From the NCBI GenBank assembly GCA_964035545.1, contig OZ037766.1, forward strand, positions 3,834,722 to 3,898,721: 64,000 nucleotides of DNA. Direction: 5' to 3'. Within the stretch, counting starts at the first letter, position 1, and the number at the start of each line of letters is the position of its first letter. The notes under the pieces are model-generated. The model searched no databases. It was not told where the DNA came from and saw only the letters and a list, made by a program, of their open reading frames with translations. The stretch comes from Bugula neritina. Taxonomy: Eukaryota > Animalia > Bryozoa. Of the stretch, positions 7,573 to 54,290 are shown in pieces. The position numbers were made by a program, and so were the translations under genes.

Positions 7573-7700
7573 AATAATCAGTTCCTAGAAACAAGGTATA
7601 ATTTAATAAAACTCCAGCTGCTTGAACGGCATTGTGGGAAATCTTTGGACAAAAGAAAGTTTAACTGTACTACAGGTGATCTGAACATCAGAAGAAATCA

Positions 7701-13909: not shown

Positions 13910-14277
13910 GCAGTTATTAATAGCAAAACTACCCTTGACTACTACAGTAATATAATATGTTTGCAATTAAAAGCAAATTATTTCTCAACTGAAGTTTAAG
14001 AGTGTTGGTGTCAGTAGCTTACCCGGTAGTTAGCTTTGAGTTCTTTAGATCTATTTGTCAATCTTACTTCATTATTGATCTTTAACTTAGTTGTGTAAAT
14101 AAAGTACACCAGGCGTGTAATATAGAACCTGCAGTTTTTTCCTTAGGATAACTACCCATACAATGTCTTAGATAGGCTTTAGCTTCTGGTTTTATGTTAT
14201 GTGAAGTTATAGAAGTAGGACTCATAATTATACTCTGTCTAGAATAACAGAATCTAAAGCTGTTTCTATCCATCAAC

Positions 14278-14320
<43 letters not shown>

Positions 14321-14782
14321 TAGATAGCTGCATATAACCTCTCAGGCGTTGTATAACTTGATTACAGTTTGCAAAAACACTTATATTTGCACCATTTACG
14401 CTTTTACTCAAAATTGTTTAGCTTACGTGTCAAAGATTTAATACGTCAAGTTTAAAAATGTTGCTACGCTTGATTTGTGTTATAAACACGATGGGTTGGT
14501 TGTATAAAAATGTCTACTATATTTTGACAATATCAAAGGATAAATGAAGTGAACTGTGAAGCAATAGTTGATTGTGACAGTGGTAGCACTAGACTCCACT
14601 AGTTCAATTTGTCTACTTGTTACTGGTTGATGTTGGTTTTTAGATAAAAACAAGGCTAATAAATAATCAGAAACAAGGTATAATTTAATAAAACTCCAGC
14701 TGCTTGAACGGCATTGTGGGAAATTTTTGGACAAAAGAAAGTTTAACTGTACTGCAGGTGATCTGAACATCAGGAGAAAGCA

Positions 14783-16060
14783 ATGGATGGTGGTACATAC
14801 ATTATTCTAATTGTGGTGGCAGTGATAGTGAAAGTGATCATATGGATGGCGATATGTGGGTATAGATGCAACTCCAGACAGGTGAGAGTGGAATCGTGGT
14901 AGAGTTCTGTAGTGCTGCGAGTACTCAGTAGCCTCTGTAGTGTCGAGGTTTGCGTGCGCCTGCTTGTAAGCCAGAGGTCTTGGGTTCGAATCTCAGTGAA
15001 GGCAAAAGTTTTACAAGTTCACCTAGCAAACATATATAGTAATGTCAGCCATATAATATTGTGCAAAATTCTTTTGAATAACCCAAGTATCTACATTTTA
15101 GAGAAACCTAGAAAGTCAGTTTGAATAAATGTTCGATTATTTGTTGCCACAATGTCAGTTGAATAAATGAGTGCTAGTACATGCTGTATTGGCTACTAAA
15201 CCTACTTACTGTATCATAATTTTATTCTAGATTGAGAAATTTTGTAAATAAGTCTTCTAGGGAGCATACATTATGAGTAAATAGTTTTGTGTATTATACT
15301 ATACTATGCTATACTATACTATACTACACTACACTACACTACACTACACTACACTACACTACACTACACTACACTATACTACACTATACTATGCTATACT
15401 ATACTATACTACACTACACTACCACTACCACTACACTACACTACACTACACTACACTACACTACACTACACTACCACTACCCATCAAATTTTGTGACTGG
15501 AGTAAATAAACCAGCTAATGATGCTTTATTTTATTCAAATGCAACTTAAATAACAATCATTTGATCTTGGCTTAAAATTTACCAAAGACAATTATTAGAT
15601 TCAGATTTGGTCAATTGACCAAATCTGACAGCCAGATTTTTCGGGAGACATTGGCTTAATATTCTTTTGAAATATGTACATAATCATTATATAGTGATCA
15701 AGCTTAATTTCTACTATTTTAGCGTGTAGTGACTAGGCAGGTTATTACTGTTACTGCACCCCACCCATCTATCCACTCTCCTTATGGACCAACTGCTACA
15801 TCTACAGGATACGCTTCTGGTGCGGCGCAAGAGCCGATTCAGTTTGCTCCGCTACCGTCCACGCTGGGCAGTGAGTATTTGTCAATTACTTGAAACTTTA
15901 AATCTGAGGCTAAGAAAACATAATGACTATGTCGGCAAACCTAATTTCATTCATAGCCTTAGGGTGTTGATACTCTTATTTTATAGAGCCAGCTGTAACT
16001 CCGGAGCCTGAGATTCCAGATAGCCAGCCACCGCCCTATGATAGATATGTCCCCTACTAG
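14783..16060 (+). CDS. Small TM/PPPY protein, copy 2 (exons 14783-14881, 15723-15870, 15987-16060)
   Basis: Same exon sizes (99/148/74 nt) and open frame as copy 1. Confidence 0.8.
14931..15170 (+). mobile_element. tRNA-derived SINE-like element in intron 1 of copy 2 (homologue at 24901-25120)
   Basis: A-box-like TAGTGTCGAGG and B-box GGTTCGAATC, followed by a body shared with 24901-25120; stems too degenerate for a functional tRNA. Confidence 0.55.
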
Positions 16061-16648
16061 AATCTCCATGATCAGCCTGTGTGTTTCTGCTTTACTATAG
16101 CATTATTATTGAGTGTGTTTACCCCCCCCCCCTCCCTGTCATTTAGTGTGGTGTTCACTCAATGCAGTCAGGTCATATCTTTTCTCTGCATTATTTTATG
16201 TTAATCATATTCTTATATGCAATAATATAATAGTATGTGACAAGGACAGTTTTCATAGAAATTTACAATTGTGTTAAAATCTTGATAAAAATTATGAGAT
16301 GTTTTTTCTATAAATAGTTAACACTTTTTATAATATAATACAACCACCTGCTACTCATACATCTTAATAAAAATATTTTAATTCAAGTTTTAAAATAATA
16401 TAATATTGTTATTAGATAAGCATACCATGTGAGTAAACCTCGACGTCTAGCTCAGCCTAAAGTTTACACTGGTTTATGATTGCTAATTGATGGAGTTTTT
16501 TGTCTGATGAATTTATTTAAATTATTTTTACGTACCAAAAAGTGCATTTCATGTGTAGTTTGTGATGTGTGACATTCACTTTCCTATTATAATGATATGG
16601 TGCTATAGAGATGAGATGTAAACCTTTTACACGAAAGTTGATTACTAA

Positions 16649-17105
16649 GTGTAAGACCACACGACACATTTTACATGAGCGTGACGTGCGAGAAATGACG
16701 TCTAGCCTAGCTAAAAATTGTATGTCATGAGCGGGATTTTCATGTGTCTAGCATGCTGAGCGAGAAGAGCGGCAAGCTAGTGCTTGTTTGATCTAATTGG
16801 CTTATTATCATTTAGCGAGAACATTTTTTTTATTTCAATTCACGTTTTAGCTTTTAGCGAACTGAATTACAACAGTTTCATATAATTTGCATTTTCCGCT
16901 TTTATAATATCTAATCTAATCGAGTCACTTTGCCGATGACGTAATTTTAAAAACAAACGTCTGTAGGCAAGCAGCAAAGTTTAACGCTAACATCATTGGC
17001 TAATAAATTTTTGCACTCGCAACACACGCACTGTGTGTGGCAGGTCACTAGCGTGTATTCTCGCACGTCACGAACGTGTAAAAAACGGGTCGTGTGACCC
17101 TGCAC
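16649..17105. mobile_element. MITE (PIF/Harbinger-like) with imperfect ~45-bp TIRs
   Basis: CACACGAC..CGTGACGTGCGAGAA versus TTCTCGCACGTCACG..GTCGTGTG; TAA/TTA flanks; absent from paralogous units. Confidence 0.55.
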
Positions 17106-17611
17106 TTAGTATTCACTTACCCAGGCACTGAATAAAACATACCAAACTAATGTGCAAACAGGTGCAGCCCCAATGAAAAATTTGCTGGTTATAACTCAGC
17201 CATGTGCTGAATGATAGCAAGTAAGGGAGGCGCTTACAACCAAACCACACATGAAGGAACAATGCTGAAAGAGCTGAGAATTCTTATGATTTGTGGCTGA
17301 AGCCACCTTATCCATGCTGTAAGGTGTATTAGGTCTAAGAAGAGAGAAATTGTATTGTATAACTGCCCATACATCCAGAAAATAAATTAGTTTATAGTAC
17401 AATATAATATTTAGTTTATGAACACCATAAAACTGCAGTTTGATGAGAATGTTAATAAATTTCAGTGAGTGAGTGTGCAAAGGCATAAATATGGTAACAT
17501 TTTATTGAAAAAGCAAGTGATTTTGTAAACAAGTAAAGGAAAGCAAATAAATTATAATGTTTTGTAATGACAGAACATTTAGTACCACAGCGTGTAAACA
17601 TTATAAATACA

Positions 17612-17860
17612 ATCACCCAGCCATACTATTGTGAGATTTCAAACATTCTTTATTACTCTTCCCCCTCTCGCCATATTGAAGGAAAGATTTTCACACAAGG
17701 CTGTTTTTCAGAAAGAGTTGTTGGCACATATCCACAGTTATAATTATCTGCCCATGATATTGGTTTGCTGGTATGTTGTGGTTGGCAAGTGTTTGATTCA
17801 CGTTGGGGCATATTTTTGCTGATGTTTCGACATTTAAACTCCCAAAATATTCAACTTGCA
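17612..17860 (-). pseudogene. Second relic of the sulfotransferase last exon
   Basis: Homologous to 42808-43050; homology breaks near the Academ-type insertion at 18178. Confidence 0.7.
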
Positions 17861-18609
17861 AACAACACCAATTTATTATAACAGAAAAAGTTTAAAAATT
17901 GAATCGGTATGTTTATTTTTCAAATTACTAAATCAATGCATCGAATAAAAAATTTTAAATTATAAAGTGTCTTGTAAGATTTTCTATCAATTTCCAAAGT
18001 GTTTAAAAAACAATTTTCCATTGCTTCTTCAAAAAAAAGTTTAAACTTTTAATTAGTCTTTCAATAACTACACATACATGAGTATCAAGATTTAAAATAA
18101 TTAACAGTTTCACTGTTTTCTCAATACAGCAATCATAATAATTGTTTGTAATACATAGAGTTTACTAGAAAGCTATATAGTCTAGGAGTAACCTCCAATT
18201 ATCTTTCACTCATTACACTCCGACAGGTAGCCACGCAATTTTTTTAGAAATGGAAAGTTTGAAGGGTCCTAATTAATCTGTGAAAACTCTAGACTGTTCT
18301 GTGCACCCAGTTAGCCACAAGAGCGCTTCAAACTTTTAAATTAATCAGGAGTTGTTTTCTCTTAACATTTTTGTGAATCGGCTAAATATCTTGGAATTAT
18401 TCAAGCTAATTGATTTTATATAAGCAAAATAATTTTGCTGATAATTATAGATACCCTTTTCAATTTTCTGTTATAAAAACTCTAAATTTTTCTGTCCACC
18501 CAGTTAGTCACAAAAACTCTTTAAAATTTTACAGGAGTTGCTTCCCCACAACTTTGTCCAAATCCATTAAATATTATCTTGAAATTATTGAAGCTAGTTT
18601 ATTATATAT

Positions 18610-24750: not shown

Positions 24751-27700
24751 ATGGAGGAAAGTACATTCATTAGCATAATTGTGGCAGTAGTGATGGTCAA
24801 AGCCATTATATCAATAGCGATATATAGGTATAGATACATCTCAAAACAGGTGAGAGTGGAAACATGGCGTTGAGTTCTGTAGTGTTAAGGTTACCCAGTA
24901 GCTCCTGTGGTGTAATATTGCTTAGCACGGCCGGTTTCCAATCTGAAGACTGCAGGTTTGAATCCCAGTGGGTGCAAAAGTTTTACAAGTTCACCTATAG
25001 CAAATATACAGTAATATCAACCATATAATATATGGAAAACTTTTTTAAATAGCAAAAGAAATCCGTCAGTTTAAAGAAATGTTCAATCATTTGTTCTCGC
25101 AATGTTGGTTGAGTAATATCTGCTAGTACATGCTGTATGGGCTACTAAAACTGGCCTTGCTTCTTACTTACTGCATCGCAATCTGATTCTAAAAATTCTG
25201 TGAAATATTGTAGATAAGACTTCCTCCATGCAGAGAGCATACACTATGAGTAAATTATAGTTTGGTATACTCTTAAGCTATGCTAGAACTTGATTATTAG
25301 TTTGTATGCGTTTTATTAAAATGTTAGGGCTATGTATTTCTAGTGTCAAACAAGCCTCACACTGGGGCTAGTCAGAATTCACCAGGTGTAAAATTTATTT
25401 CGTTCAATATTGTGATTAAATTAGTGTTTTGTTGCATTGTTCACTGCTTTACATTAAATATTGTAAGACTTTCTAATGCTTGTTTGTAGTTACACAGAAG
25501 CCTCGATTATCATAAATTTTTCTATTTTGTATATTCTTGCATTTTTTTTTCTTTTCATAAATTTTGCCCTTGAAATTGCCTAAAAATATGTTATATCATA
25601 TTAGCATTCATGGCATACTTTTGTGTTAAAGATGTTAATAGTAATTCATTTCTCATATAAGCACGCCAACTCCTAGATAGCACTGCAGTTATATCTAGGA
25701 GTTGAGCTGCTAACATGTTAGTAGTAAGGTAGTTGGTGCACATGGATGAACAAATTGTAAAAAAATTACAGGGTCTATAATCATCATATCAATTGGGTAA
25801 ACAACTCCAAAATTACAGTTATCCCGTAATCGTGCTTAGTAATATATACCTATCTATGTTACTCAACAGCAAAATCATCTTTTTAGCTGTAGCATATCAG
25901 TAAGTAATATTTTGTTGACTACAGCATGAATTTCGGAGAGTAGTAGTAGGTGGATGGTCCTAGGACAACCCTTCCCCCGTCGAGTCTTCGACTCTCCGGT
26001 GTCAGGGATTGTCCTAGGACGCATCCACCTACTACTACTCTATTAGTTTTTTTCGTTAAGTTTTAGAAATTGTACGTTTTAGGACAGTTTATTATTTTAT
26101 TGTCCCAGAATTGTATGTTTTAGGACAGTTTATTATTTTATTAAGTTTACTATTTTATTACTATTAATTTAGAATAAAAAAATATTTTATAGAGTTTTGT
26201 TTTAAAATTGTACGTTTTTAGGACAAACATTAACTTTTATTTCAGAATGCATTCACTCGTTACTATTAGTAAGATAATAAATTATTATACGCTGAGAATA
26301 TAATAATTTAGTGTTTAAACGTTATAACTTGGAAATGTGGGTTGAGATTCTGTAGATTCTATTATATCACCATCGCTCGTTGATATAATTAATTTATTAC
26401 CAACTGCTCCTTGTAATTTAGGAATAGCGTAATTATTTATATTATTTATTGTAATAAGATCTGAAATATTTATACCCGTTTCTACAATATTACCATCACT
26501 CGAAAGCATTAATAATTTACCTCCGATTATTGGTTGTATTTTATTCATAGCGAAATTATTTATATTACTAGTCGTAATAATATCGCTAATGCTTAAACTA
26601 CTATCCGCAACATTACCCGAAGTAGTCGAAACGGTTAATTTTTCATTCGCTGGTTGTATTTTATTTATAGCGAAATTATTTATATTACTAGTCGTAATAA
26701 CATCGCTAACGCTTAAATTACTATCTATAATATTACCCGTATTAGTTGATACGGTTAATTTTTCACTCGGGTCTCGTATAAGAGGTACGGCGTAATTAGA
26801 TACATTAGTTTTCGTAACGACATCATCAACTTTTAAATCACTATCTATAACGCGTCCATCGTCGGTTGATATAGTTAATTGATTAATAGGATGTAATATT
26901 TTAGGCATACTCGTATCGTCAACGTATTTTTTTGTGGCTACGTCTTGATCGTCAACCGGATTAATAACTCTAGATATTTTATTTTCACCCATATCTAACG
27001 TACCCGTAAGAGTACTACTACCGTTTATTAAAACGAATTTTTTTGTATCTATTTTTGTTTTTTCGCTTCCTCCGAATTTATAAACACTCATTTATAATTG
27101 TAGTAAAGTTTTAACGACACTAATTCAAACGGTAAAGCTATAGGCGCGTTGTCATTAACCGTAATGTCATTGGGTTTACGACTAATATAATCGTTTGAGC
27201 AGTGTAATACTAATCCAATATTTTTATCGCTCTCAATATATTCCAACATAGGTATTTTTACGCGCGCAACGCCTCCTTGAATTATATATTCTTTAGTATT
27301 GTGTTTGAGAGGGTTATTAACATTACCGATGATTAAAGTTAAATTTTTATCTTTCCAATATAAAGGATTATCATTATTAGCTGGAAGATGTTGAAATTCT
27401 AATAAAGCGTATTTTAGTTCTATTGGTTTATCCACTATATACCCCAATAATATTCCTATATTAATTGTTGTGCTAAAAGATTGTATAAAAACATTATTAT
27501 TTTTAGTTACGACTCTTTCGATATAATTTTCTTTTTTAGCTTTCGCTAATGATTTACCAAACTTATAAACACTCATTTATTACGGTATATAAAATTCGTC
27601 TAACCCGTGTCTATACCTCCCATTATTTTTTGAGGAAGAAAGATCTAAAGTAATAAAGCCGTGAGGTTTTTGCCATCCTTTATAACAAAAGTTTTTAAAT

Positions 27701-39700: not shown

Positions 39701-41318
39701 TTTAATTAATGATTATTTAGTCAATAAATCTATAGAAATAACGCACGCGTTAATACAATTTTATAACGAAAGTTCACCTAATAATAAAACGAAAGAATTA
39801 TATTGGACTGATAAAAAATTTGGTTTACATATTCGTAATAGCGTAAATCCATTTGACGAGTCTAAAGAAAATATATTTTATACTATTAGCGGTGCTGAAC
39901 ATAATGTTCCGTATAGTAAAATAAATATTAATAAAATTGTTAACGCTAATAATAATTTTTCGTTTACAATAGCTCTTTCGAGTAATTATCCAAATCATAA
40001 ACCTAATGACGTAATTCTTGTTAATACACTGAGTGAATTCGCTACTGATGCACTACCCTTTGATTACGTATATTTAAAACTTTATTATAATAGTTTAACT
40101 AATTAAAAAATTATTATTAATGCTTTCGAGCGATGGTAATATTGTAGAAACGGGTATAAATATTTCAGATCTTATTACAATAAATAATATAAATAATTAC
40201 GCTATTCCTAAATTACAAGGAGCAGTTGGTAATAAATTAATTATATCAACGAGCGATGGTAATATAATAGAATCTACAGAATCTCAACCCACATTTCCAA
40301 GTTATAACGTTTAAACACTAAATTATTATATTCTCAGCGTATAATAATTTATTATCTTACTAATAGTAACGAGTGAATGCATTCTGAAATAAAAGTTAAT
40401 GTTTGTCCTAAAAACGTACAATTTTAAAACAAAACTCTATAAAATATTTTTTTATTCTAAATTAATAGTAATAAAATAGTAAACTTAATAAAATAATAAA
40501 CTGTCCTAAAACATACAATTCTGGGACAATAAAATAATAAACTGTCCTAAAACGTACAATTTCTAAAACTTAACGAAAAAAACTAATAGAGTAGTAGTAG
40601 GTGGATGCGTCCTAGGACAATCCCTGACACCGGAGAGTCGAAGACTCGACGGGGGAAGGGTTGTCCTAGGACCATCCACCTACTACTACTTCGGAGGTGT
40701 ATGAAATCGATTTCCTTGGCCAAGCGCCAGACCAAGTTTATTCATATAGATATGTCCCATCAAATGTGACTGAAGCAAATAAACCAATAAATGATAGTTT
40801 TTTCAATTGCAACTTATTAACAAATGTTTGGTCTTAGCCTACAATTAAATAAAGATAACTATTAGATTCAAACTTAGTCAATTGACCAAGTCTGCCGGCT
40901 AGAATACATTGGCTCAATATTTTTTTGAAGTATTTACATAATCATAATACAATGATTGGGCCTACCTTCTACTATTTTAGCGTGTAGTGACTAGGCAGGT
41001 TATTACTGTTACTGCACCCCACCCGTCTGTCCACTCCCCTTATGGACCAACTGCTACATCTACAGGATACGCTTCTGGTGTAACACAAGAACCGATCCAG
41101 TTTGCTCCGCTACCTGCCGCTCCGGGCAGTGAGTATTTGTCACTTACTTAAAACTTTAAATCTGAGGCTAAGAAAATATAATGACTGCGTTGGAAAACCC
41201 AACTTTATTTATAGCCTTAGAGTGTTGATATTCTTATGTTATAGAGCCAGCAGCAACCCCGGAGCCTGAGATTCTAGATAGTCAGCCACCGCCCTATGAT
41301 AGATATGTTCCCTACTAG
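24751..41318 (+). CDS. Small TM/PPPY protein, copy 3 (exons 24751-24849, 40981-41128, 41245-41318); Polinton in intron 1
   Basis: Same exon sizes and splice sites; frame open. Confidence 0.75.
25939..26039. other. 101-nt terminal fold-back palindrome (left end)
   Basis: Arm AGTAGTAGTAGGTGGATG-GTCCTAGGACAA-CCCT pairs with AGGGATTGTCCTAGGACGCATCCACCTACTACTACT (two 1-nt bulges). A symmetric 9x9 partly paired segment follows, then the apex GAGTC-TTC-GACTC. Confidence 0.95.
26065..26228 (+). repeat. Three subterminal direct repeats AATTGTAYGTTTTAGGACA(GTTTATTATTTTATT) in the TIR
   Basis: Copies at ~26065, ~26107 and ~26205; they share the TAGGACA core with the terminal hairpin. Confidence 0.8.
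26278..26310 (-). terminator. AT-rich hairpin (12-bp stem, 9-nt loop) just past the fibre stop codon; mirrored at 40319-40351
   Basis: TAAATTATTATA / TATAATAATTTA. Confidence 0.55.
26315..27091 (-). CDS. Putative fibre/spike shaft protein, 258 aa
   Basis: N-terminal MSVYKFG. GTLDMGENKI...DQDVATKKYVD resembles tail-fibre neck motifs. About five ~40-aa repeats (KLTVSTxxGNIIDSxLSxSDxITxxNINNxA). Confidence 0.7.
   Translation of the reverse strand: MSVYKFGGSEKTKIDTKKFVLINGSSTLTGTLDMGENKISRVINPVDDQDVATKKYVDDTSMPKILHPINQLTISTDDGRVIDSDLKVDDVVTKTNVSNYAVPLIRDPSEKLTVSTNTGNIIDSNLSVSDVITTSNINNFAINKIQPANEKLTVSTTSGNVADSSLSISDIITTSNINNFAMNKIQPIIGGKLLMLSSDGNIVETGINISDLITINNINNYAIPKLQGAVGNKLIISTSDGDIIESTESQPTFPSYNV
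27088..27576 (-). CDS. Fibre-associated/putative receptor-binding protein, paralogue 1 (162 aa)
   Basis: MSVYKFG N-terminus; LYWKDK, KPND and ALPF motifs shared with ORFs 39070 and 39585. Confidence 0.55.
   Translation of the reverse strand: MSVYKFGKSLAKAKKENYIERVVTKNNNVFIQSFSTTINIGILLGYIVDKPIELKYALLEFQHLPANNDNPLYWKDKNLTLIIGNVNNPLKHNTKEYIIQGGVARVKIPMLEYIESDKNIGLVLHCSNDYISRKPNDITVNDNAPIALPFELVSLKLYYNYK
27580..28338 (-). CDS. A32/FtsK-HerA-type genome packaging ATPase
   Basis: Walker A GKSGCGKT, Walker B LIIFDD, RGRH and LSQ motifs typical of A32-like ATPases. Confidence 0.95.
   Translation of the reverse strand: MEIENLSWKNEINRNNNPLLPKSIRGLIVGKSGCGKTTLLCNLLLQPNWLDYDKLMIYGKSLSQPEYINMRKAFERKLTKEEILNFFKNSDAIINSSINVNRVLKNSKGNGNINAEFIESSDDVYDPSELDASNKNLIIFDDLMLEKQKTCESYYVRGRHNNVDCFYLSQNYFKLPRNTIRENANFICLFPQDGKNLNHIYQDHVTGDLTLNEFKNFCYKGWQKPHGFITLDLSSSKNNGRYRHGLDEFYIP
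28336..28353. promoter_or_regulatory. 18-bp perfect palindrome CATTTATTATAATAAATG containing both divergent start codons (ATPase / PLA2-integrase)
   Basis: Self-reverse-complementary; only 12 bp separate the two ATGs. Confidence 0.8.
28351..29715 (+). CDS. Fusion protein: Zn ribbon + parvovirus-type phospholipase A2 + RVE (DDE) integrase + chromodomain, 454 aa
   Basis: CxxC..CxxC N-terminus; PGHNFLGPGT and AMRHDVCY (PLA2); WAADLVDM, IDVFSKY, VDKGKEF, VERWNRTMK (integrase); ALVKWLGYPDSQNSWV (chromodomain). Confidence 0.93.
   Translation: MYCCKCKTKTKTLNYEKRVSKNNRLMGYGNCGQCGCKKTTFVGSGLANNLINNLPFELHYPGHNFLGPGTKLNKRLNDDMTPKEWSKPVDRDDAIAMRHDVCYALNKDTKTRNEICDKNMLDELKAIPNPTPFEQRHSRFASAIIGAKKRLGWGWTNELAEELHKPVQKKFRKRRVWVSGIDNIWAADLVDMTEFAKFNNGYKYLLTVIDVFSKYGWIIPLKNKTGKATALALKTILTRRKPQHLWVDKGKEFYNKDVKSLIDLYSTENEEKSSVVERWNRTMKERMFKYFSANNTYKYIDVLKDLVKRYNETKHSSIGMTPIEASNPSNENKVRVKLYPNLPALSKPKFAVGDRVRIPRKKRTFEKGYTVRWTEEVFTINKILYTNPTTYKLTDSGGEEIQGSFYERELQKTSQEMYRIERVIKKKGKKALVKWLGYPDSQNSWVNLNVLERL
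29715..29872 (+). repeat. Intergenic tandem array of AAAAGTGGACAC / TAGACAC units with an embedded 10-bp-stem hairpin (29797-29820)
   Basis: Directly visible; TGGACACAAA-TGTG-TTTGTGTCCA. Confidence 0.9.
29886..30692 (+). CDS. Conserved Polinton protein (PZ-like, putative core protein), 268 aa
   Basis: YPATRGLLSLLT, DLANYANIL and C-terminal DPNALVERLELLISSAKAGNTGVRNEI motifs recalled from Polinton conserved ORFs; lies upstream of the capsid block. Confidence 0.7.
   Translation: MSYLKIYDPIKRDKTVQDFISRKNKLKENFKRERERELNAAMAQEKYFEPVIASQAQTTDALKQLLTLPNYNVQPAITDGVINLDEFTQNALAGLEPGAYNVKWDGNRHVIGTKPISFNDGKIIFDNEEYPATRGLLSLLTRKTPIGYNDNDLANYANILDNSGAIYQSKHGPIDKNSEKWKNIVRPIWEQLYPQRAKLANSKKAKRQVGDGVVYLSSDPNALVERLELLISSAKAGNTGVRNEIVSILDELLRMKIITRDYYKSILV
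30696..31022 (+). CDS. Small basic putative core/membrane-lytic protein, 108 aa
   Basis: YAGGG followed by amphipathic IFDTIRNVVTKIAS; Lys/Arg rich; directly upstream of MCP. Confidence 0.6.
   Translation: MYVYDKRQRLQRHYAGGGIFDTIRNVVTKIASNSSVRELGKKAIAKAGTAAGEKIVNAIKKRRLNAIKKRSLNAKSQAILQKLSLAKNVLNNSNISNILEGSGQAIAY
31044..32318 (+). CDS. Major capsid protein (double jelly-roll, PY), 424 aa
   Basis: Size, beta-rich sequence and position before penton. Motifs PSKSYLIIEG, LRHLFGFADDYEK, KPKYIIVGFQ, LNSERYP, LFVIDVSKQ are typical of Polinton MCPs. Confidence 0.92.
   Translation: MDSLNITQKIVLDTSVERDQVHEYEPVTGTNLNTPSEIRIVINQQDLYVQPSKSYLIIEGRLTKADGTAYADADLVTLTNNGMAYLFKSIRYQLDGHDLEYINNPGHASTMMGLLTYPDDYGKSRGLNQLWSKDTTAAAAAANLGFNARQIYIIQKPDPKGTFSIKVDLRHLFGFADDYEKVLYGIKHQLTLVRDTNDNAIFRANGVDAGKITLDKVSWWMPHVTPSFEMKHKLYKIIESKTELPLIYRSRWCDSIAVPQTTNFTWRLGSRGDTEKPKYIIVGFQTDKNESQTTNPAVFDHVNVKSVYAMLNSERYPEVDYDIDFAKMKFSRVYGDASKFCGEYYGINELIAYSNVLPSEYKDLYALFVIDVSKQSEALKSSVADIQLRVQFSQNVPANTQAYALILSDKTMSLSSDGNNLKVI
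32319..33077 (+). CDS. Minor capsid protein (penton, single jelly-roll, PX), 252 aa
   Basis: LNPPIEL, SFPNI, LPVGVYEL, LRDVLGF, PGYKIIEKPHNLIYLP, DQKGNLLDLSGE motifs. Confidence 0.88.
   Translation: MDNRILREIADNTASKQTMTIGVTDTKTRIITQLNPPIELNKNKKYEMCLISLDTFYSFPNISTDRNSYRWSKDGGTTWHLVSLPVGVYELDQLEEAIQDEIVKEGGNRNGITLQANKVTFRIILKLKPNYQIDFNVENSLRDVLGFNAAIYNQPYIEATNIVNILNINAIHVQVDCINGSYIDGTYKPVIYSFFSSVSPGYKIIEKPHNLIYLPVHVKYIKTLTVTVTDQKGNLLDLSGEQLSIRFHLREV
33090..33659 (+). CDS. Putative core protein precursor with an adenovirus pX/pVI-like hydrophobic peptide, 189 aa
   Basis: MSGG-FLGALLGIATRVIPTLL resembles the adenoviral pX cleavage-site region; three further KGxGL motifs. Confidence 0.65.
   Translation: MGYCEIIGNVPQAQKQKIMNAYRSGKGCVIKLPLESGNDKLVVTKTQNDNILKALNANKKNITLEMSPSLVKTNASMSGGFLGALLGIATRVIPTLLKTIIPGVLSGAASAGVERAIKGKGLYLKKGGCVCSVEPNLNGSITLKPVASSNLMKGNGLYLKQGSSYIKGEGLILGPNSPFKNIPLLGMLL
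33652..34102 (+). repeat. 29-bp perfect direct repeat TATTATAGTTAAAGAAAACATATATAAAT flanking the 130-aa ORF (33652-33680, 34074-34102)
   Basis: Two identical copies read directly from the sequence. Confidence 0.9.
33679..34071 (+). CDS. Orphan ORF, 130 aa, with short E-I-I-Y-K-like repeats
   Basis: Open frame with the ATAAATG start context shared with the other element genes. Confidence 0.65.
   Translation: MATVITYKSLDGTPITETIYKNNDCEKRVYEGGDIKERIIYKKFNILDEMNNSTNECGLLEEITYNNKKEIIYKEDNGKIKIKTIYKTKEIIQELNVGLMNYAAARIPSFFTKLKYAEDEIKKRRNDALH
34134..34162. terminator. AT-rich hairpin (13-bp stem) between convergent ORFs
   Basis: TTAATTAATTATA-ATA-TATAATTAATTAA overlapping the stop of ORF 34159-34638. 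Confidence 0.55.
34159..34638 (-). CDS. Two-TM-helix membrane protein, 159 aa
   Basis: Two hydrophobic segments between coiled-coil-like helices; C-terminal SKFLSDSHIDEQEY motif; ATAAATG start. Confidence 0.75.
   Translation of the reverse strand: MDFRREKLELLNDEIIKLENEYEQKLNCFNWLSKSLKIISGLCGTTNLICGVIITALINANVTKQTLFPLSIIVSIMSVITTSISSQDTKLIKSTLMYLDIYTFIKDSKLEINSMLSKFLSDSHIDEQEYDAITEKYKNINNVILDKKSDIIIARNNIC
34651..34908 (+). CDS. Orphan ORF (85 aa, or 75 aa from ATG 34681)
   Basis: Fills the gap before pPolB and is followed by a hairpin; lacks the ATAAATG context. Confidence 0.5.
   Translation: MIFIILLFYNMDLTVELLDKLIAETEQKKYTPLLEYLYIPVINNISLKEINFRTRKQIPNINKYFYIKSILKREAYKRKEENRDV
34930..34960 (+). 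terminator. AT-rich hairpin (13-bp stem, 5-nt loop) between the 85-aa ORF and the pPolB promoter
   Basis: TATTATTACTTAT-TTTAC-ATAAGTAATAATA. Confidence 0.55.
34964..35002 (+). promoter_or_regulatory. Putative pPolB promoter: AAAATTGA ... TTAAAGAA ... TATATAAATG
   Basis: AAAATTGA (34964-34971) equals the mimivirus early promoter octamer; the TTAAAGAA block is shared with the 29-bp repeat at 33652 and 34074. Confidence 0.5.
35000..38671 (+). CDS. Protein-primed family B DNA polymerase (pPolB), 1223 aa
   Basis: Exo I YADFEC, Exo II HNLSGYD, polymerase motifs YLDANNLYG, KLMNNSVFGK, FTDTDS. EndoVII-like insert CYIC..DHCHLTGNYRGAAHKNCN. Rho-N-like N-terminus; OTU-like DNKCFMWA..HY. Confidence 0.98.
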   Translation: MEFNTKITVKALKALAKERGLKRYSRLKKAELIRLLSPMDEPVPNIGQPPLIPTPVKKIMREIFTQTTRNIKKWVIKPITKIINPIKDKIMALYNQPKLKEQAANGWFQTYEIKGLPGYDIDSFCKLIKLNVLKLLKPTIKIKIFIYCEMKKHNMSTGETIVEIMPFTSNIETILESTNINEIYDEIIERIKENFASLNAKGSSWMFKAIKKMEININKYQPLNGSSWIDLPKEIKLKKAVINPKNEDNKCFMWAILMSVHTPKNHPERINNYKEYVNKFSWEGVEFPATKKSIDAFEEANSNIGINVFTWDGKTINLWKKTKNQGKIINLFYISDDKKSHYAYIKNLNKLLGSQINKRVSAKHICVNCMNSCRSNESLKKHQDWCLTNDGVTTVFPKIENKIKFQSSHHCRSMRVPFVIYADFECFTKPIQSCQPNSQESYTNQYQQHEPSGFGYYIVSVTGECEYRSYTKQYEDENIGELFMKLLELDIKNLYKKHKFPKPMKISASEQESFELAEICYICEEKLGNDRVRDHCHLTGNYRGAAHKNCNLNYKIPKFYPIFIHNLSGYDAHLFIKNLGGEPSCIPNTEEKYISFSKKLLVDEFTNKEGEKIKVTREIRFLDSYKFMSSSLASLVANLKRDDFKHLQKHYIKKQLDCYAEKQLDLLLRKGVFPYDYFNNVSVLDETFLPPKEKFYSSLTESNISDEDYEHAQNVWQEFNMKTFREYHDLYMKIDVLQLADVFENFRNVCLEHYKLDPAWYYTAPGLSWDAMLKTTKLELDPITDVDQLLFFEKAIRGGVSMISHRYAKANNKYMENYNASEPSSYITYLDANNLYGWAMSKNLPTGNFKWMTEKRCKDLEKSLNFPPSFLEVDLEYSKELHNFHKDYPFCPERLTINKVEKLIPNLNNKKNYVIHYEALKQCLMYGLKLTKIHKGITFNESNKLKEYINLNTKLRTLARSDFEKDFFKLMNNSVFGKTMENIRNRIDVKLVTSESEAKKLTNQPNFKGYTIFSENLIAVHMNVTKLKFNKPVYLGAAILDISKTLMYDFHYEYIRLKYGNKAQLLFTDTDSLMYHVQTEDFYKDILPDIENKFDTSNYPENHKLLNNKNKKVIGMFKDEAGGKQITEFVGLRAKLYSYKIDGIEEKKCKGINKTTRNNRITFDDYKECLLTRRDQLRTMNVLRSHKHTMYAETINKVALSSEDDKRIILEDGITTVPYGYNK
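38668..39069 (+). CDS. Adenain/Ulp1-like maturation cysteine protease, 133 aa
   Basis: GTHWVA, YFDSFG and Q..ICGHLC catalytic motifs. Confidence 0.95.
   Translation: MSIKLENKALSNIELEFAIKKLKIPRFRGVFSKNDLPDKPRKKECGILNLDNLMGNGTHWVAWYKNNNKKYYFDSFGLHPPLEIMKYLKPPIFYNTERVQEFGTVICGHLCLYWLKEMSKHESPQLIINKLLI
39070..39588 (+). CDS. Fibre-associated/putative receptor-binding protein, paralogue 2 (172 aa)
   Basis: MSSVYIFG; KELYWTDK; ALPF..KLYYN; clearly homologous to ORF 39585. Confidence 0.6.
   Translation: MSSVYIFGNSAKATIINEKPYITKIIIPSEFYCSSSGFGGTLIKDFLVDEPIEITNILVQFYGEQAHNTKELYWTDKRIGLQVRNSAEIFGVSDENTFYDISGSEHNLPFSEISVNKVIEANKDFSISIALSKTYPSHKPSDVILTDTPASEITTAALPFHYVLIKLYYNYK
39585..40106 (+). CDS. 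Fibre-associated/putative receptor-binding protein, paralogue 3 (173 aa)
   Basis: MNIYKFS; KELYWTDK; ALPF..KLYYN. Confidence 0.6.
   Translation: MNIYKFSKVNITTNKAYITSIIPKHEFYYYEDINSFTVDLINDYLVNKSIEITHALIQFYNESSPNNKTKELYWTDKKFGLHIRNSVNPFDESKENIFYTISGAEHNVPYSKININKIVNANNNFSFTIALSSNYPNHKPNDVILVNTLSEFATDALPFDYVYLKLYYNSLTN
40113..40690 (-). repeat. Right terminal inverted repeat (578 bp), including a duplicate of the last 64 codons of the fibre gene (40120-40314)
   Basis: Reverse complement of 25939-26516; ORF 40120-40314 equals the C-terminus of ORF 26315-27091 with one D/N change. Confidence 0.95.
40590..40690. other. 101-nt terminal fold-back palindrome (right end)
   Basis: Exact reverse complement of 25939-26039; apex GAGTC-GAA-GACTC. 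Confidence 0.95.
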
Positions 41319-42807
41319 AATCTCCATGACCAGCGTGTGTGTTTCTGCTTTACTATATAGCATTATTATTGAGTGTGTTTACCCCCCCCCCCTTTCCTCC
41401 CTGTCATTTATTGTGTGGTGCTCACTCAATGCAATCATGTCATATCTTTTTTTGCTTTTATTTTATGTTAATCATATTTTTATATACAATAATATAATAG
41501 TATGTGACACAACAAGATAGCTGTGACAGTTTTCATAGAAATTTACAATTGTGGTAAAATCTTGATACAAATTATGAGATGTTTTCTCTATAAATTGTTA
41601 ACACTTTTTATAATATAATACAACCAACCACCTGCTACCCATACATCTTAATAAAAATATTTTAATTCAAGTTTTAAAATAAGATAATATTGTTATTAGA
41701 TAAGCATGCCATGTGGGTAAACCTTGACGTCTAGCTCAGCCTAAAACCTGCACTGGTTTATGATTGCTAATTGATGAAGTTTTTGTCTGAGGAAGTTATT
41801 TAAACCATCTTCACATACCATAAAGAGCATTTCATGTGTAGCTTATCTTAAGAGACATTTACTCTCTTATTATAATGATATGGTGCTATATCATTATAAT
41901 AGGAGAGTGAATTATTATTAAATAATTCATTGAGTGCTTTAAATAAATTAAGCTCATGAATTACAACTATGTTCAGTGCCAGTAAGATGCGCAGAATAAA
42001 AATGTGTCTGAATTGAAATTGCAATTAAATCATATTTTTGGTGATAATTAAATATAATTTGTCTAATTAAACATTTTATTTATAATTTTCATCATAAATC
42101 TTTTGCGAAAACATGTAACAAAGATGCAGAAACTGGATGAATTTATCACGCAATTACCGACTGTAAACACATAGTAATATGAGCCACGCCTGCTACTGAT
42201 AAGTAGCAAAATGGCGGACAACGCCCAAAAGTCGCCACTCTGATATCGCTCATCTCTGATACGGGCACTAAATAAAACATGTCAAACTGATGCGCAAACA
42301 GGTGCAGCCTTAGTGAAAAAGACTGTTTACTGGTGTCTCCTATACTTGGAATCATTTAGCACAAAGCACAGCCATGTGCTAAATGATGGCAAGTAGGGGA
42401 CACGCTTACCACCAAACCGCACATGAAGGAACAATGCTAAAAGAGCTGAGACTACACTGTAAGAATTCTTGTGACTTGTGGCTGAAGTCATCTTATCCAT
42501 GCTGTAAAGTGTATTAGATCTAAGAAATTGTGTTGTATAACTGCACGTGCATCCAGAAAATAAATAAGTTTATACCTAGTACAATATGTTTAGTTTATCA
42601 ACAACATAAAAATGTAGTTTGATTAGAAAATGGATTAACATCAGTGAAGGAGAGTGAAACAAGCATAAATATGGTGACATTTTATTGAAAGGGCGAGTGA
42701 TTTTGGCTGAGATTTCTATCAAATTACAATGTAAGTAAAGGAAAGCAAGTAATGTTTTGTAATGACGGAACATTTAGTATCACAGCGTGTAAACATTAGA
42801 AATACAA

Positions 42808-45800
42808 TCACCCAGCCATACTCTTGTGAGACTTCAACCATTCTTTTTTAATCTTATTCCTCTCACCATATTTAAGAAAAGATTTCCACACAAGACTGTT
42901 TTTCAGAAAGAGTTGTTGGCACATATCCACAGTTATAATTATCTGCCCATGATATTGGTTTGCCGGTATGTTGTGGTTGGCAAGTGTTTGATTCACGTTG
43001 GGGCAAATTCTTGCTGATATTTTGGCATTTAAACTTGTAAAATATTCAACCTGCAAACAATTCCAATGTACTGTTAACAAAAAAGGTTTAAAAAGTTTAA
43101 AAATTGAACAATTATTGTTCTTTTCAAATTTTTAAACATTGAATAGGAAATTATTAATCATGAAATTTCTAAAAATAATTTCTAAAAATTTTGAATGTGT
43201 TTAAAAGACGATTCCTTTACTTTTGAAAAAGGAATGTTTCAACTTTTAATTAGTTTTTCAATAACTACACATGTATGAGTATTGAAATTTAAAATGAATA
43301 AAATTTTCACTGCTTTCTCAATACAGCAAGAATAATTGTTTGTAATACATAGAATTTACTAGAAAGTAGTAAGTTTTACCTCTACCCAGAATTCCTCTGT
43401 CTGCACTTCTGGTTGGTTCCACCAAGTCTTATTGAGAGCCTCATATAACAACAAGTCACCAAAATTAACTTCTTTTGACAATAACCTCTCTTTGGTCTGT
43501 TCAGTTAATTGAGGAGCATGGTAGTCATAGGTTCCAGTCATGTATTTCTTATAGAATATATCAGCATAGTCCCAGTTGAATCTTCTCTTCAATATCAAAA
43601 GAGACGCATCATACTGCTCGTAGAGCATAACAACTGCCGTTCTAAAAGAAGACATAACAGTAATATCTTTACAATATAAGAGTATATAAATATATATAGC
43701 ATTTTTCATCAAGATGGTTGTAGTCCTGTGTGAATGGCAATATATTATATTACATTGTCTTTATAATATAAAATATATTTAAAATATATCCCTATATAAT
43801 AAAAATAAATCAATGAGAAAAAAATTGATGACTATTTTATTTATCTAAGTAACTGTATGCATGCAGTTTAACAACGTTTTAACCTTGAAAGTATAAGTTT
43901 ATTTTATTTATCTAGATTAGCAAAGTAAAGTATTGAACAAAAAATGTTATTCCTTTTCAATAACATAGTATATTATATAATAAATAACAACACGAGTATT
44001 TGCACACCTATACCTCTGTATTATAAAATTGATATGTTCCATCATGGCAGAAACATTATAGCGGTTGGCATAATCAAAGCCCAATGTACACAGTTGTCTC
44101 AAGTGAAATGTATGTAGTCCTTTTCTATTCTTTACTTCTTCAAACATATATTCATCATTGTTTACAACCTCCTCAGCGCTCTAAAAAAGGTTTGAATAAT
44201 ATTATTGCTCATGTTGATCAACCACATTATTACCCTAAATTTCTTCATTATATAAAAATCTATAGCATTGAGTAGAATATTTTGCATTATCAATCAAAAA
44301 TTGCATTCCTCTTTCAAGAGTTCTCACTTAGAGGTCGTACAAGTGTATTATATATTATACTGCTGCTATCATGAAAGGCCTTGGATTATTTTTATCTAAA
44401 TGATTAGATTATAGAGTTATCTTATCACAATGTAGTATGATTAATAAAATTCAAAATAATTCCTATTTTCACCGTTTTCTAAATACAGCAATAATTTTAT
44501 GCAATACAATGTACCATTTTTCAGCAGAACTTACCTTTTTAAGGAAATTGGAGGAAGCTGACACCATCCATGCTACTGGCTCCCTAACTGGTACTATCAG
44601 CTTATATCCTTTCTTCATTCGCTCGTCCAGTGTTTGGGGATTGTAAACTGCAAAGTTTATTAGTACTTCTGGCTTTTCTTCAACTTTCGGCCCAACTAAC
44701 CATTCTGAAACTAAAACAACAGTGAAGTGTTGAAGCTTCTTGACAAAAGAATTGCTCATTCTTCTGTTTTTAATCTATGAATGGGCAGTGGGTGCCTAGT
44801 GGCCTCTGCCTTTACTGTTCAGGCGATTATTTTAGAATAACATGCTAAGCACATATTCACACCTTGGCTTATGCCTTTTAGCTGGTGCGTCCAAGTTGTT
44901 GAAGTTGGCCTCCCTTGATTAAGATTTAATTGCAAGTTTTGTGATTCAAGTAATTTTCATTTAAACCTAGACTATTGTTATTAAAAACTAGTTGGTAGGC
45001 CTTGGTATTTAGCAGTGCCGATAAAAAGTAAATATGCAGATTAAAGAAAGCAGGCATGCAGAAATTTAGCTGTATTAGTTTTATTAGCTATTAGTAAATA
45101 TTCATCAAGTCAAGTCGTTGGTTTTGACAAGCTTGGAAAAAGCTTGCTGTGAACAAGATCTTTCAATTAGATATTCTTTTACGAACCTGAAGCATTTCTA
45201 TAGACTGGCATCAACAAATTAAGTGAGTGAGCCTTACTAAACCTGGAGAGGATGGAGAAAAGCGTGGTTGAACCAGTTTTGGGAATCTTTACAAATACGA
45301 AGCTTGTAATCTTAGACTGCCCAGTCCCTGCATCAACAATTTTGTATGCAAAAAGTACAATTACATGCTTCCAGTAGAATAGCATAATTTAATCTGTAAT
45401 AATGTATTTGCAGAGACCTATTGAGCTATGAAATTAGCTAAAACAAGAGATGTAGTATTGCTTTAATAGCAGAAGTAGCTTAAAATAAAATTATCTTTAC
45501 CATATTTTCGAATTAATTGCTAAAATTTCTAATGAAAATGAGGATTTCAGTAGCTATAAAGTTTGTGCCAACATTTTAGCCACTGTAACTTAGTTATTTT
45601 ATAATATTGAATTTCATTCTGCATTACAATGCATTAAAACAGAAGTCTGCTGCTATCTTTAGAAAAACAACTAAGCAGCTAAACTAAATGCTAATTACTT
45701 AGTAAAGAATTTAAAATTGTAAGCAACTCTTCAACAATAAAAACAGTTGAGTCTTTCACGTACTACATCATCAAAATACACATTTCCTTTTTCTAAATAT

Positions 45801-46603
45801 AAGTCACACTCGCGATAAGCTATTTTGGACTCAGCAAGGTTTTGGACTTCCCATTTTGAAATGACCACTTTAACTGTGCATGCCTGAATTTTTTCCACTC
45901 TGTCCATTTCCTCAGTGTGTCTTTAGTCTAATATAAAAGACACTGCAATATGAAACAGCTATTAGACTTACAGCTTTCTCCATGAACTTTTGCAGGTCTA
46001 ATCCAACGTATAAGTTTGTAACTTTTAGAACTGCTACTTATATAACATCTGCAAAATGAATAGAACTTTTGTAAAGATAGTTTAAGGCCTAATAAGGGAG
46101 CTGCTATTGCATAGACAGCGGACTTGGTGTAATACTTGTAGGCCAACTCTAAGGTTGGAAGTTCAGCAAGATCATTGGAAGGGCAACCTAGCCGATCATA
46201 CCATCTTTTATGCCACATCAACAGGCCCAACACTATGTTGTCGGAATGGTGAGAGGTATAGTTTTTAGACTGGTGAAACATTATCCTTCTTGTAAAAACT
46301 GCAGGCCTTCAATTTGCAAACTATAGGGTGCTCACCTTTACACAGCTATAGGGGCTACTGGGAAATCTCAACGCTACACTTCAAGATTTCTCTAAAGATT
46401 TCAAACAAACATTGGTAAAAGGTAGTGCGTATTCAGGCATTTTTACACCTTTGAGTATAATCAGGTAGTAAGTATTTAGTTTTAATAATTTAAAAAGAGT
46501 ACTAGAAAATAGCCGTATGTATAAGTATTGGCTATACTCACAGTATAATGAAGCTAATCGCCAGGATGATTATCATTTTATAAGATTCATTACTTGATTT
46601 CAT
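42808..46603 (-). CDS. Galactose-3-O-sulfotransferase-like gene, copy A (7 exons; exon 3 acceptor mutated, possibly rescued or a pseudogene)
   Basis: Type II TM N-terminus MKSSNESYKMIIILAISFIIL; 5'-PSB KIPKTGSTT; 3'-PB VREPVAWMVS; EQYDASLLILKRRFNW; DLLLYEALNKTWW. Exons ~46542-46603, 45972-46048, 45187-45345, 44535-44710, 44014-44180, 43380-43641, 42808-43050. Confidence 0.75.
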
Positions 46604-48045
46604 TTTAACTAAAGTTATTGTTATAGCTTGTAGCGTGCAGGTTAGATTTAAGTAGGATTCAAACAGCGAGACTGAACTCACTGCAGCTGAGATGGCGATG
46701 AACAAATTCCTTTTACTAGATTTAGGTGAATGACCATTGGTCAGCGTCTATTATGTTTTGTTAGAAAGTCACTAAAAGCAGCACCGAGTTGGAAGTCACT
46801 GCGTGCAGTTTGTATAGACATAATTGTCAAAACTCGAGACTCTCAACCACAATGACTACCAACTTGTTGCTGCTTCTAGCAATTACCATTTTAGCTATGG
46901 TCGTAACCACTGTTACTATATTATATTATATTATGTGCTTTTGTTGATAGCTAGTCGCGGATTGCCAAGAAGCTGCTTTATAATGCTAAGCAACCAGTAA
47001 ACACAGCCTACTTAGGATTACTACTTAGTGTGAAGTAAATTCTGCACTTTATTTTCTAATAATAAACCAATCAAATCAGAATTTTTCTACGTTACATAAA
47101 CTAGCCCAATGCAGTATATGATTATGAATAAATTTATAACCTAAAAGATAAAGACTATAAATGGTAAGGTTTTGTAAATAATCAGGTGCTATAGTCAGGT
47201 GATTTGTACGATGTTTTAGAGTCTAGACCTAGCATAGTTTCTTGCACGGTATCATTTGTAGTCATTCTTATTCTCAAAGTCAAGTCATTTTCATAAAGTA
47301 GCTTCAAAGTCAAGTCATTGTGTGTTTGTTTCTTACCCTGAAAGGAATCAAAAAACAACAGCTCTGTTTATGTAGGCTGGCCAAATGTCTCACAGCTTTT
47401 ATTCACATCCTTTAGACAAAAATAATACAGAGATAATGGAGATAATATAACTAAAAATAATTTAGGGTTTCAGTTTAGCTTATATAATAGGTAGGATAAA
47501 AATAGTTGCATGATGCCCATCAATAAATAAAATAGCAAATTAGCCAAAAGTTAATTCAAACAGCGAGACTGAACTCGCTGCAGTTGAGCTGCCGATGAAT
47601 AAATTCCTTTCACTAGATTTAAGTGAATGACCATTGGTCATGTTTTGTTGAAAAAATTACTAAAAGCAGCACGGAGTTGGAAGTCACTGAGTGCACTTTG
47701 TATAGACATAATTGTCAAAACTTGAGACTCTCAACCACTGCACTCAGTGAGCACTAACTCATTGCTGCTTCTAGCAATTTCGATTTTTCTGTCACTATGG
47801 TTGTAATCACTGTTATCTATATTTTATATTATATTATGTGCTTTTGTTGACAACTAGCCACCAGACTGCTTTATAATGCTAAGCAACCAGTAAACACAGC
47901 CTACTTAAGATTACTACTTAGTGTTACGTAAATTCTGCGATTTGTTTTCTAATGATTGACCAATCAAACCTGGATTTTTCTATGTAATATGTATAGGACC
48001 ATTGTACTATACGATTATAAATAAATTTAAAACCTGCAAGATAAA

Positions 48046-48349
48046 CTGTCCACTCCCCTTATGGACCAACTGCTACTTCTACAGGATACGCTTCTAGTGT
48101 AACACAAGAGCCAATTCAGTTTGCTCCACTACTGGCCGCCTCGGGCAGTAAGTATTTGCCACACCATACTCCCTTTCTTACTTGAATCTTTAAATCTGAG
48201 GCTAAGAAAATATAATAACTATAATGACTAACTTTATTTATAGCCTTAGAGTGTTAAGATACTCTTATGTTATAGAGCCAGCTGTAACCCCTGAGCCTGA
48301 GATTCCATATAGCCAGCCACCGCCCTATGATAGATATGTCCCCTACTAG
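48046..48349 (+). pseudogene. 5'-truncated copy 4 of the TM/PPPY gene (partial exon 2, exon 3)
   Basis: Homology begins mid-exon 2; no exon 1 seen upstream. Confidence 0.75.
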
Positions 48350-49339
48350 AATCTCCATGGCTAGCCTGTGTGCTTCTGTTTTACTATAGCATTATTATTG
48401 AGTGTGTTTTACCACCCTCCTTCCCTCCCTGTCATTTATTGTGTGGTGCTCACTCAATGCAATCATGTCATCTTTTCTTGCTTTTATTTTATGTTAATCA
48501 TATTTTTATATACAATAATATAATAGTGTATGACACAACAAGATATAAGCTGTGACAGTTTTCATAGAAATTTACAATTGTATTGAAATCTTGATACAAA
48601 TTATGAGATGTTTTCTCTATAAATTGTCAACACTTTTTATAATATAATACAACCACCTGCTACCCATACATCTTAATAAAAATATTTTAATTCAAGTTTT
48701 AAAATAATATAATATTGTTATTAGATAGGCTTGACATGTGGGGAGATATTGATTTAGCGTTAACATCTAGCTCAGCCTAAAATCTACACTAGTTTATGAT
48801 TGCTAATTGATGTAGTTTTATGTCTAAGGAATCTATTTAAATCACTTTCACGTACCATAAAGTGCATTTCATGTGTAGCTTATCTTAAGAAACAATCACT
48901 CTCTTACTATGATGATGTGGTGCTATAGATCGAGATGAGATGCGAAACTGTTACACAGGCTTTGAACACAACATGTCAAACTGATGTTGAAACAGGTGCA
49001 GCCCTAGTAGAGAAAACTGTTTTTTGGTCATAGCACAGCCATGTGCTGAATGATGGCAAGTAAAGGACAAGATAAATTAGTTTATTGTATTGACAATATA
49101 TTTAGTTTATCAACACCATAAAACTTCAGTCTGATTAGAAAACTAACATTGATTAACATTAGTGAGTGAGAGTGAAACAAGCATAAATATGGTGACATTT
49201 AATTGGGCAAGTGATTTTGGCTGAGAGTTCTACCAAATAACAATGTAAGTAAAGGAAAGCAAGTAATGTTTTGTAATGACAGAGCATTTAGTATCACAGC
49301 GTGTAAACAATATATACATATACTTTTGTGAGATTTCAG

Positions 49340-54290
<4,951 letters not shown>

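Follow-up and report, generated by a model that had tools for sequence, protein, structure and literature searches.

A Group-1 Polinton of the bryozoan Bugula neritina with a strict ATAAATG start word, possibly read by a helper virus

In the present study, a stretch of 64,000 nt from the genome of the bryozoan Bugula neritina (contig OZ037766.1, hereafter the 64-kb window) has been analysed, which contains a Polinton of 14,752 bp at 25939-40690. Nearly all the genes of this element start in the same context, ATAAATG, and the possible meaning of this start word is the main subject of our analysis. An original prediction had described the element as an intact endogenous Polinton-virus, and the description was borne out. 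The terminal inverted repeats (TIRs) at 25939-26516 and 40113-40690 are 578 nt each and 100% complementary, the 6-bp target-site duplication TCGGAG is present on the left (25933-25938) and on the right (40691-40696), and all 16 open reading frames (ORFs) are uninterrupted. Both ends of the element, including the beginning of the left TIR, read AGTAGTAGT; such AGT-repeat ends together with a 6-bp duplication are those expected of a Polinton/Maverick. The outermost 101 nt of the TIRs (25939-26039 and 40590-40690; AGTAGT...ACTACT) are self-complementary (-39.5 kcal/mol, z -11.4 for the left one) and could form a long imperfect hairpin; a terminal hairpin of the same kind was not found in 83 related loci, most of which perhaps lack their ends. 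The right TIR also contains a 64-aa copy of the C-terminus of the fibre-like protein (40120-40314), which has been excluded from the gene count. The element sits within intron 1 (24850-40980, plus strand) of a small host membrane-protein gene belonging to a tandem family. Spliced loose ends at 40979 in four contig sets (X1-X4) match exon 1 of two paralogues and the exons are in frame; these sets are contigs and not raw reads, the RNA label of X1-X4 is guessed and not on record, and a further set (X10) is unlabelled. The identical TIRs and the many variant contigs show that the element is multicopy and recently mobile, and its insertion is recent.

The left part of the element encodes a fibre-like protein of 258 aa with 40-aa repeats (26315-27091, minus strand), which has homologues among the terminal ORFs of 5 related loci and for which we infer a fibre role, then orfA (162 aa, 27088-27576, minus strand, start TAATAAATG), whose N-terminus MSVYKFG is common to the fibre-like ORF, and an A32/FtsK-type packaging ATPase (27580-28338, minus strand; Pfam Pox_A32, E=2e-8). 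A perfect 18-nt palindrome, CATTTATTATAATAAATG, at 28336-28353 contains the start codons of both the ATPase and the divergent integrase (28351-29715, plus strand), which has DUF5679, PLA2-like, rve and chromodomain matches in Pfam. Between the integrase and the next gene lies an array of 12-, 19- and 31-nt repeats of the GTGGACAC(A/T) type (29715-29870), in which one copy is inverted and whose length differs among copies of the element. The PZ-like conserved Polinton protein (268 aa, 29886-30692, plus strand) was recognised by alignment with relatives; it has no PDB match, and the sole structural match of its model (pLDDT 69.6) is a DUF8207 protein. It is followed on the plus strand by a small basic protein of 108 aa (30696-31022; 4 homologues in related loci), the double jelly-roll (DJR) major capsid protein (31044-32318; PF21738, E=5e-58; 3379 relatives), a candidate minor capsid (penton) protein (32319-33077), whose role is suggested by position and conservation and whose start is fused to the capsid stop codon (TAAATG), and a conserved basic/hydrophobic protein of 189 aa (33090-33659; 15 homologues in related loci).

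An orphan of 130 aa (33679-34071, plus strand) lies between the two copies (33654-33681 and 34076-34103) of a 28-bp direct repeat in which the start motif is contained. Other copies of the element differ at this orphan (joint 34050-34154, with loose ends in X4), and together with the flanking repeats this suggests an exchangeable cassette. A 159-aa protein with two hydrophobic stretches (34159-34638, minus strand) diverges across a 12-bp gap from an 85-aa ORF (34651-34908, plus strand). The family-B DNA polymerase (1223 aa, 35000-38671, plus strand) has Rho_N and endonuclease VII domains and the motifs DANNLYG, NSVFGK and DTDS. It has no PF03175 match, as is described for the Beta class in PMC8502044, no Pfam match to the N-terminal OTU-like domain expected of that class and no PDB sequence match. 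The right part is completed on the plus strand by an adenain-like cysteine protease (38668-39069; Peptidase_C5, E=0.002, below the curated cut-off, with 13 close homologues) and by orfB (172 aa, 39070-39588) and orfC (173 aa, 39585-40106). The paralogues orfA, orfB and orfC (162-173 aa) adjoin both TIRs, have only 9 relatives at E<=0.001 and are possibly fibre heads.

By its sequence, the element is a Group-1/Beta Polinton matching the Group-1/Beta adintoviruses described in PMC8502044. The capsid protein matches the Polinton family PF21738, as do those of all close relatives, and no virophage capsid family was matched in Pfam; the element does not belong to the virophages (Maveriviricetes) in the taxonomic sense. 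Further, the prediction that no RNA polymerase is encoded agreed with the Pfam scan, in which none of the 16 proteins matched an RNA-polymerase family and the small orphans remain uncharacterised. An own transcription apparatus, the lack of which is one mark of a provirophage, was thus not found among the 16 ORFs, the PZ model matching DUF8207 only.

The start word was found to be nearly universal in the element and rare outside its starts. ATAA stands directly upstream of 15 of the 16 starts and of 2 of the 279 other ATGs of the element on both strands (Fisher p=3.6e-22), and TAA precedes the ATG at 15/16 starts as against 7/279 other ATGs. The original prediction had placed 15 of 16 genes in an ATAAATG context and proposed enrichment over other ATGs as its check; all 15 ATGs listed by it carry ATAA and the enrichment is confirmed. 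The longer form TATA(A)TAAATG, which it had called usual, is present in 12 of the 15 motif starts and is missing at 27091 and 39585 (TTATAAATG) and at 27576 (GTAATAAATG). The sole start without TAAATG is that of the 85-aa ORF at 34651 (TATAAAAAAATG). Each of the 16 genes has a TATA at most 14 nt from its start, 3.9 being expected from shuffles. The intergenic gaps were found to be mostly short, as had been claimed (<=21 bp in 12 of 15; the remaining three are 170, 87 and 91 bp). Two pairs of divergent starts are 12 bp apart, and the palindromic one presents TAAATG on both strands. TAAAT overlapping the start codon, the criterion used for post-replicative poxvirus promoters, is present at 15 of the 16 starts.

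Two simple explanations of the word, both named in the original prediction as outcomes that would refute it, have been rejected. A mere Kozak context is contradicted by the base at -3, which is T in 15/16 starts (8 of these also lacking G at +4), since eukaryotes favour a purine there and Nakagawa et al. found A to be favoured in each of the 47 eukaryotes that they examined (PMC2241899); the host context at two paralogous starts is AATCA-ATG and GAACA-ATG. Coupling of stop and start codons accounts for only 2 of the 15 motifs (32319 and 39070), which take their TAA from the upstream stop. At 27091, 38668 and 39585 the motif is encoded within the final codons of the preceding ORF, and at 28338, 28351 and 34638 it is present with no same-strand gene upstream. 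Moreover, 3000 synonymous shuffles preserving the codon-junction dinucleotides give an expectation of 9.2 copies of TAAATG in the sense strand of the ORFs, where 2 are present, so that the word is depleted (p=3e-4; its rank among 731 hexamers is 2), whereas AAAATG, GAAATG, TTAATG, TAAATA and TAAATT are at expectation.

Other signals at the starts and stops were searched for as well. No host-type promoter was found. Between -150 and -12, as well as downstream, no k-mer keeps a fixed distance to the start beyond what random anchors give, and the 16 stops are not followed by a consistent T-run, hairpin or poly(A) signal. A trans-splice (pyrimidine-AG) acceptor is present at 0/16 starts. The claim of intronless genes in the original prediction is in line with the uninterrupted ORFs, and no GT..AG joint was found in the element among the joints listed for the four RNA-labelled contig sets. 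AATAAA (57 vs 51 expected, 21 of them inside the polymerase ORF) and GTRAGT (5 vs 4.9 expected) are not avoided, these counts referring to the ORFs of the element only. Two known viral promoter words were rejected: the baculovirus-type TAAG lies within 40 nt of only 2/16 starts, and the TCT box of the Cafeteria roenbergensis virus (CroV) type was found at 2/16 starts vs 3.2 expected.

The distribution of the word was followed in 81 related loci fetched by a capsid profile (L001-L081). Two more (L082 and L083), Polinton contigs inside bacterial metagenome-assembled genomes and likely binning contamination, were viewed separately. The named capsid relatives among the 3379 come from scallop and bryozoan genomes. 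Homology anchored 147 starts in 65 loci, of which 93 are distinct after removal of near-duplicates, and T-A(2-6)-ATG is present at 61 of these 93 as against 58 of 2236 internal ATGs. The relatives were split by contig-name group, the five nearest proteins, of which the protein sequence alone was available, being left out. In the sister set of 43 loci, TAAATG heads 11 of 21 distinct starts and T is at -3 in 13 of 21; the word is kept at both divergent ATPase/integrase starts at ~55% protein identity. A 39-row capsid tree joins the window lineage and four members of the sister set with moderate support (85/93). The remaining relatives have TA(3-6)ATG, with A at -3 in 70 of 76 starts. The start word is real, clade-restricted and anti-Kozak. 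TAAATG is low on both strands of the sister-set ORFs (4 vs 8.7 and 2 vs 7.3). A W4-TC[TA] box lies 11-26 nt upstream of 9 of 21 capsid genes of the other relatives (3.3 expected) and the same box precedes 30 of 51 giant-virus capsid genes (10.8 expected), a result that is a lead only because several motifs were tried without correction. In several related Polintons, for example L003, L014 and L020, the capsid upstream regions (AT tract, TC[TA], TATA, A-run, ATG) resemble giant-virus late promoters, as a comparison with L135 and L192 shows.

We favour the view, from these sequence comparisons, that the start word acts as a transcription initiator. The initiator of vaccinia intermediate and late genes is TAAAT, with a 5' poly(A) made by slippage (PMC6211774), most post-replicative poxvirus mRNAs carry a poly(A) leader directly before the AUG (PMC5595341), and TAAATG is annotated at many conserved late genes of salmon gill poxvirus (PMC4542343). 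The African swine fever virus (ASFV) late initiator is TA(+1)TA with a median leader of 9 nt (PMC7163114), and an asfa-like virus is reported from abalone (PMC7067878). We lean, with confidence a little above even, towards a poxvirus-like initiator function of TATA(A)TAAATG, recognised by the RNA polymerase that a cytoplasmic helper provides, which would make the element provirophage-like. Since 15 of the 16 genes have TAAATG starts and the element encodes no RNA polymerase of its own, its expression would likely depend on co-infection with a large DNA virus. The RNA polymerase of that cytoplasmic virus, and not host RNA polymerase II (Pol II), would then transcribe the genes, and the copy in the host genome would represent a silent form that is inherited. 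Transcription may begin inside the AAA of TAAAT and slippage may add a poly(A) leader, so that A would stand at -3 in the mRNA and the T at -3 of the DNA would never enter it. If the polymerase, integrase and capsid genes share a single promoter class, expression of all genes would fall in the post-replicative phase of the helper, as in mavirus. Polinton-like viruses (PLVs) related to mavpol in entomopoxvirus occlusion bodies (PMC11296320) provide a precedent for this reading. We have also counted in favour of helper transcription the observed/expected ratio of CpG, which is 2.05 in the element and 0.39 in the host flanks. CpA and TpG are depleted in the element, a mirror image of the flanks, CpG at codon junctions numbers 697 vs 448, and the ratio among relatives ranges from 0.5 to 1.5. 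In the host DNA around the element, tandem arrays with units of 6.5-7.5 kb at window positions 7600-18200 and 40700-55000 contain families of small membrane-protein genes and of galactose-3-O-sulfotransferase-like genes, and a reverse transcriptase ORF of a long interspersed nuclear element is present at 12610-13938.

Viral contigs were searched for a candidate helper. Of 127 distinct giant-virus capsid genes, only 3 start with exact TAAATG, and A is at -3 in 88% of the 127 starts. Among 22 viral contigs with the exact 18-nt palindrome, 8 take a start codon from it, one of the eight being a phage, and in the giant-virus contig L104 (3001-3018) the identical palindrome is the shared start region of two divergent genes. 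RNA polymerase subunits were found in the viral contigs L095 and L104. Single-protein scans of the viral contigs gave no relatives.

Several observations weigh against helper transcription. The motif searches of the viral contigs did not identify a helper virus, and the TATA part of the word is compatible with late starts of asfarviruses and other giant viruses too, so that poxviruses are not singled out. Of the claim that a poxvirus-like virus or other nucleocytoplasmic large DNA virus (NCLDV) transcribes the element, the initiator is favoured by the sequence tests; the helper was not found in these searches and would not necessarily be a poxvirus. No element gene shared with NCLDVs was found. 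A looser divergent ATAAATG pattern starts two ORFs at 0 of 81 sites from the first 80 of 119 loci (12 start one), which indicates that the divergent layout is uncommon in the sampled large viruses. The termination part of the virophage-like signals claimed in the original prediction fell away, as no helper-type terminator or polyadenylation signal was demonstrable after the 16 stops. Vaccinia late genes are likewise not known to have discrete terminators. TAAATG is present at only 2 of 76 starts of the remaining relatives, which have a Kozak-compatible A-run instead and show no depletion of the word, and the sister set has a stronger deficit of CAAATG (11 vs 26.8) than of TAAATG (4 vs 8.7). 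Within the element the antisense count is 5 vs 5.2, so the depletion concerns the sense strand only, and its rank among the hexamers fails correction over all of them, TAAATG having been an a priori motif. No poly(A)-like loose ends or 5' A-leaders were found among the loose ends listed for the contig sets.

The contigs also bear on a somewhat unlikely alternative, in which the element is an autonomous nuclear polintovirus transcribed by host Pol II from dispersed or overlapping promoters in neighbouring ORFs, TATA(A)TAAATG being an AT-rich initiator or leader of this lineage that has drifted from the Kozak-like TA(3-6)ATG. Runs from three studies, with a guessed RNA label, contain element sequence. 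Most of the element is covered in X1-X4, in many variant copies and alongside spliced host transcripts, and contigs of three runs bridge the divergent start pair at full local depth: 28280-28490 in X1 (depth 267), 28280-28386 in X2 and 28158-28416 in X4 (depth 2.1). If these are element mRNA, the starts do not lie in TAAAT, which is a further point against the helper. In the unlabelled X10 one contig crosses the palindrome at depth 2147, and since the depth profile of X1 tracks that of X10 (Spearman 0.71) the X1 cover may be DNA; DNA or intronic read-through would match a silent provirophage. Two features of X1 and X2 were set aside as evidence: the near-absent TIR cover, as a record-dropping filter makes the hole uninformative, and the contig ends at 34642, which lies 4 nt before the start at 34638, as a masked repeat adjoins. 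Autonomy also agrees with the A-run of the relatives, with the recent mobility and many copies of the element and with its chromodomain integrase. Beta adintovirus transcripts with a 25-fold DNA excess in fish tissues, where no helper is named, and virions from baculovirus-infected insect cells (PMC8502044) favour the autonomy of at least some Beta adintoviruses and count against a helper here. On the other side stand the T at -3 in 15/16 starts, the lack of any fixed-distance upstream element and the poly(A) and splice-donor words that are not avoided. Moreover, with a Pol II spacing of ~24-30 bp from TATA to start (PMC7163114), a TATA 5-8 nt before the ATG would put the start past the ATG, whereas the N-termini align with their homologues from residue 1.

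An RNA-level signal appears improbable: here polycistronic or read-through transcripts would be made and UAAAUG would mark internal or re-initiating translation, or RNA processing. The sense-only depletion is not predicted by a DNA promoter and fits such a signal as well; contigs span same-strand gene junctions, the gaps are 0-21 bp, and AATAAA is found at 7/15 starts. Divergent units, however, also begin with the word, as do genes that follow gaps of 91-170 bp; direct stop-start fusions are only 2/15 and 8/15 starts lack AATAAA. We regard as very improbable that the word is a vestige of a helper-dependent ancestor, or is read by a polymerase of a cytoplasmic linear plasmid like that of the yeast virus-like elements (VLEs; initiator TAAAN). 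The VLE initiator TAAAN with its slippage leaders (PMC6211774) and the graded TA(n)ATG across the Polinton family are in keeping with it. The motif is, however, exact at 15/16 starts, including those of the lineage-specific orphans 33679 and 34638, so that it is under current selection, and no conserved upstream sequence lies at a fixed distance. To our knowledge, no cytoplasmic linear plasmid of the yeast-VLE type occurs in animals.

The helper-dependent reading of the start word, from which the provirophage-like nature of the element would follow, addresses the question of how animal Polintons/Mavericks are expressed, as autonomous viruses or as parasites of larger viruses. It predicts that transcripts begin within TAAAT and carry poly(A) leaders, and that they do so only when a helper is present; it also makes the start word a sequence handle for finding this helper. 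If it is true, the provirophage strategy of protists extends to integrated animal elements and a large DNA virus of the host awaits discovery. A bolder proposal, which we consider unlikely, is that a clade of animal Group-1 Polintons are germline-integrated virophages, that their helper is a pox- or asfar-like virus yet to be discovered in marine invertebrates, and that they serve as an inherited antiviral defence, the start motifs tracking helper lineages with TAAATG here and the TCT...TATA-A(n)-ATG type in relatives. TAAATG or helper-type promoters in animal Polintons are unreported in the literature searched, which left most subscription journals outside.

Among known systems, the Beta adintoviruses (Starrett et al. 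2021, PMC8502044) share with the element the TIRs, the 6-bp duplication, the rve integrase, the packaging ATPase, adenain, the DJR capsid, a polymerase outside PF03175 and the PLA2-like domain. The accessible text of that paper regards them as independent viruses of animals and does not mention promoters; the near-universal, strict anti-Kozak TAAATG of the element is missing in most relatives. The mavirus/EMALE provirophages of Cafeteria are likewise integrated, TIR-bounded and without RNA polymerase, and their one promoter word, TCTA in AT-rich DNA, matches the late promoter of the known helper CroV (PMC8547959). The element instead has TAAATG, which matches the vaccinia initiator, an animal host and a Polinton-type capsid, and no helper from this host was found in our searches. 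The entomopoxvirus PLVs (Barth et al. 2024, PMC11296320) are also Polinton-related and of animals, are proposed to be poxvirus hyperparasites, and two of them are placed beside the mavpol2 capsid clade. They differ in having been found in occlusion bodies and in their divergent capsids, with no rve integrase detected in AHEV_PLV1, and the accessible text has no promoter analysis, whereas the element is a canonical integrated Group-1 Polinton. The Tetraselmis PLVs reactivated by TetV-2 (10.1101/2025.10.09.676808) are integrated Polinton-like elements of virophage-like lifestyle with an algal host and experimental proof, two features that the element does not share. In comparison to vaccinia TAAAT(G) and ASFV TA(+1)TA, the word of the element combines TAAATG with a TATA within 8 nt of the ATG; it precedes the polymerase and the integrase as well. 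With an ASFV-type start the mRNA would retain a U at -3, whereas with a pox-type start it would not.

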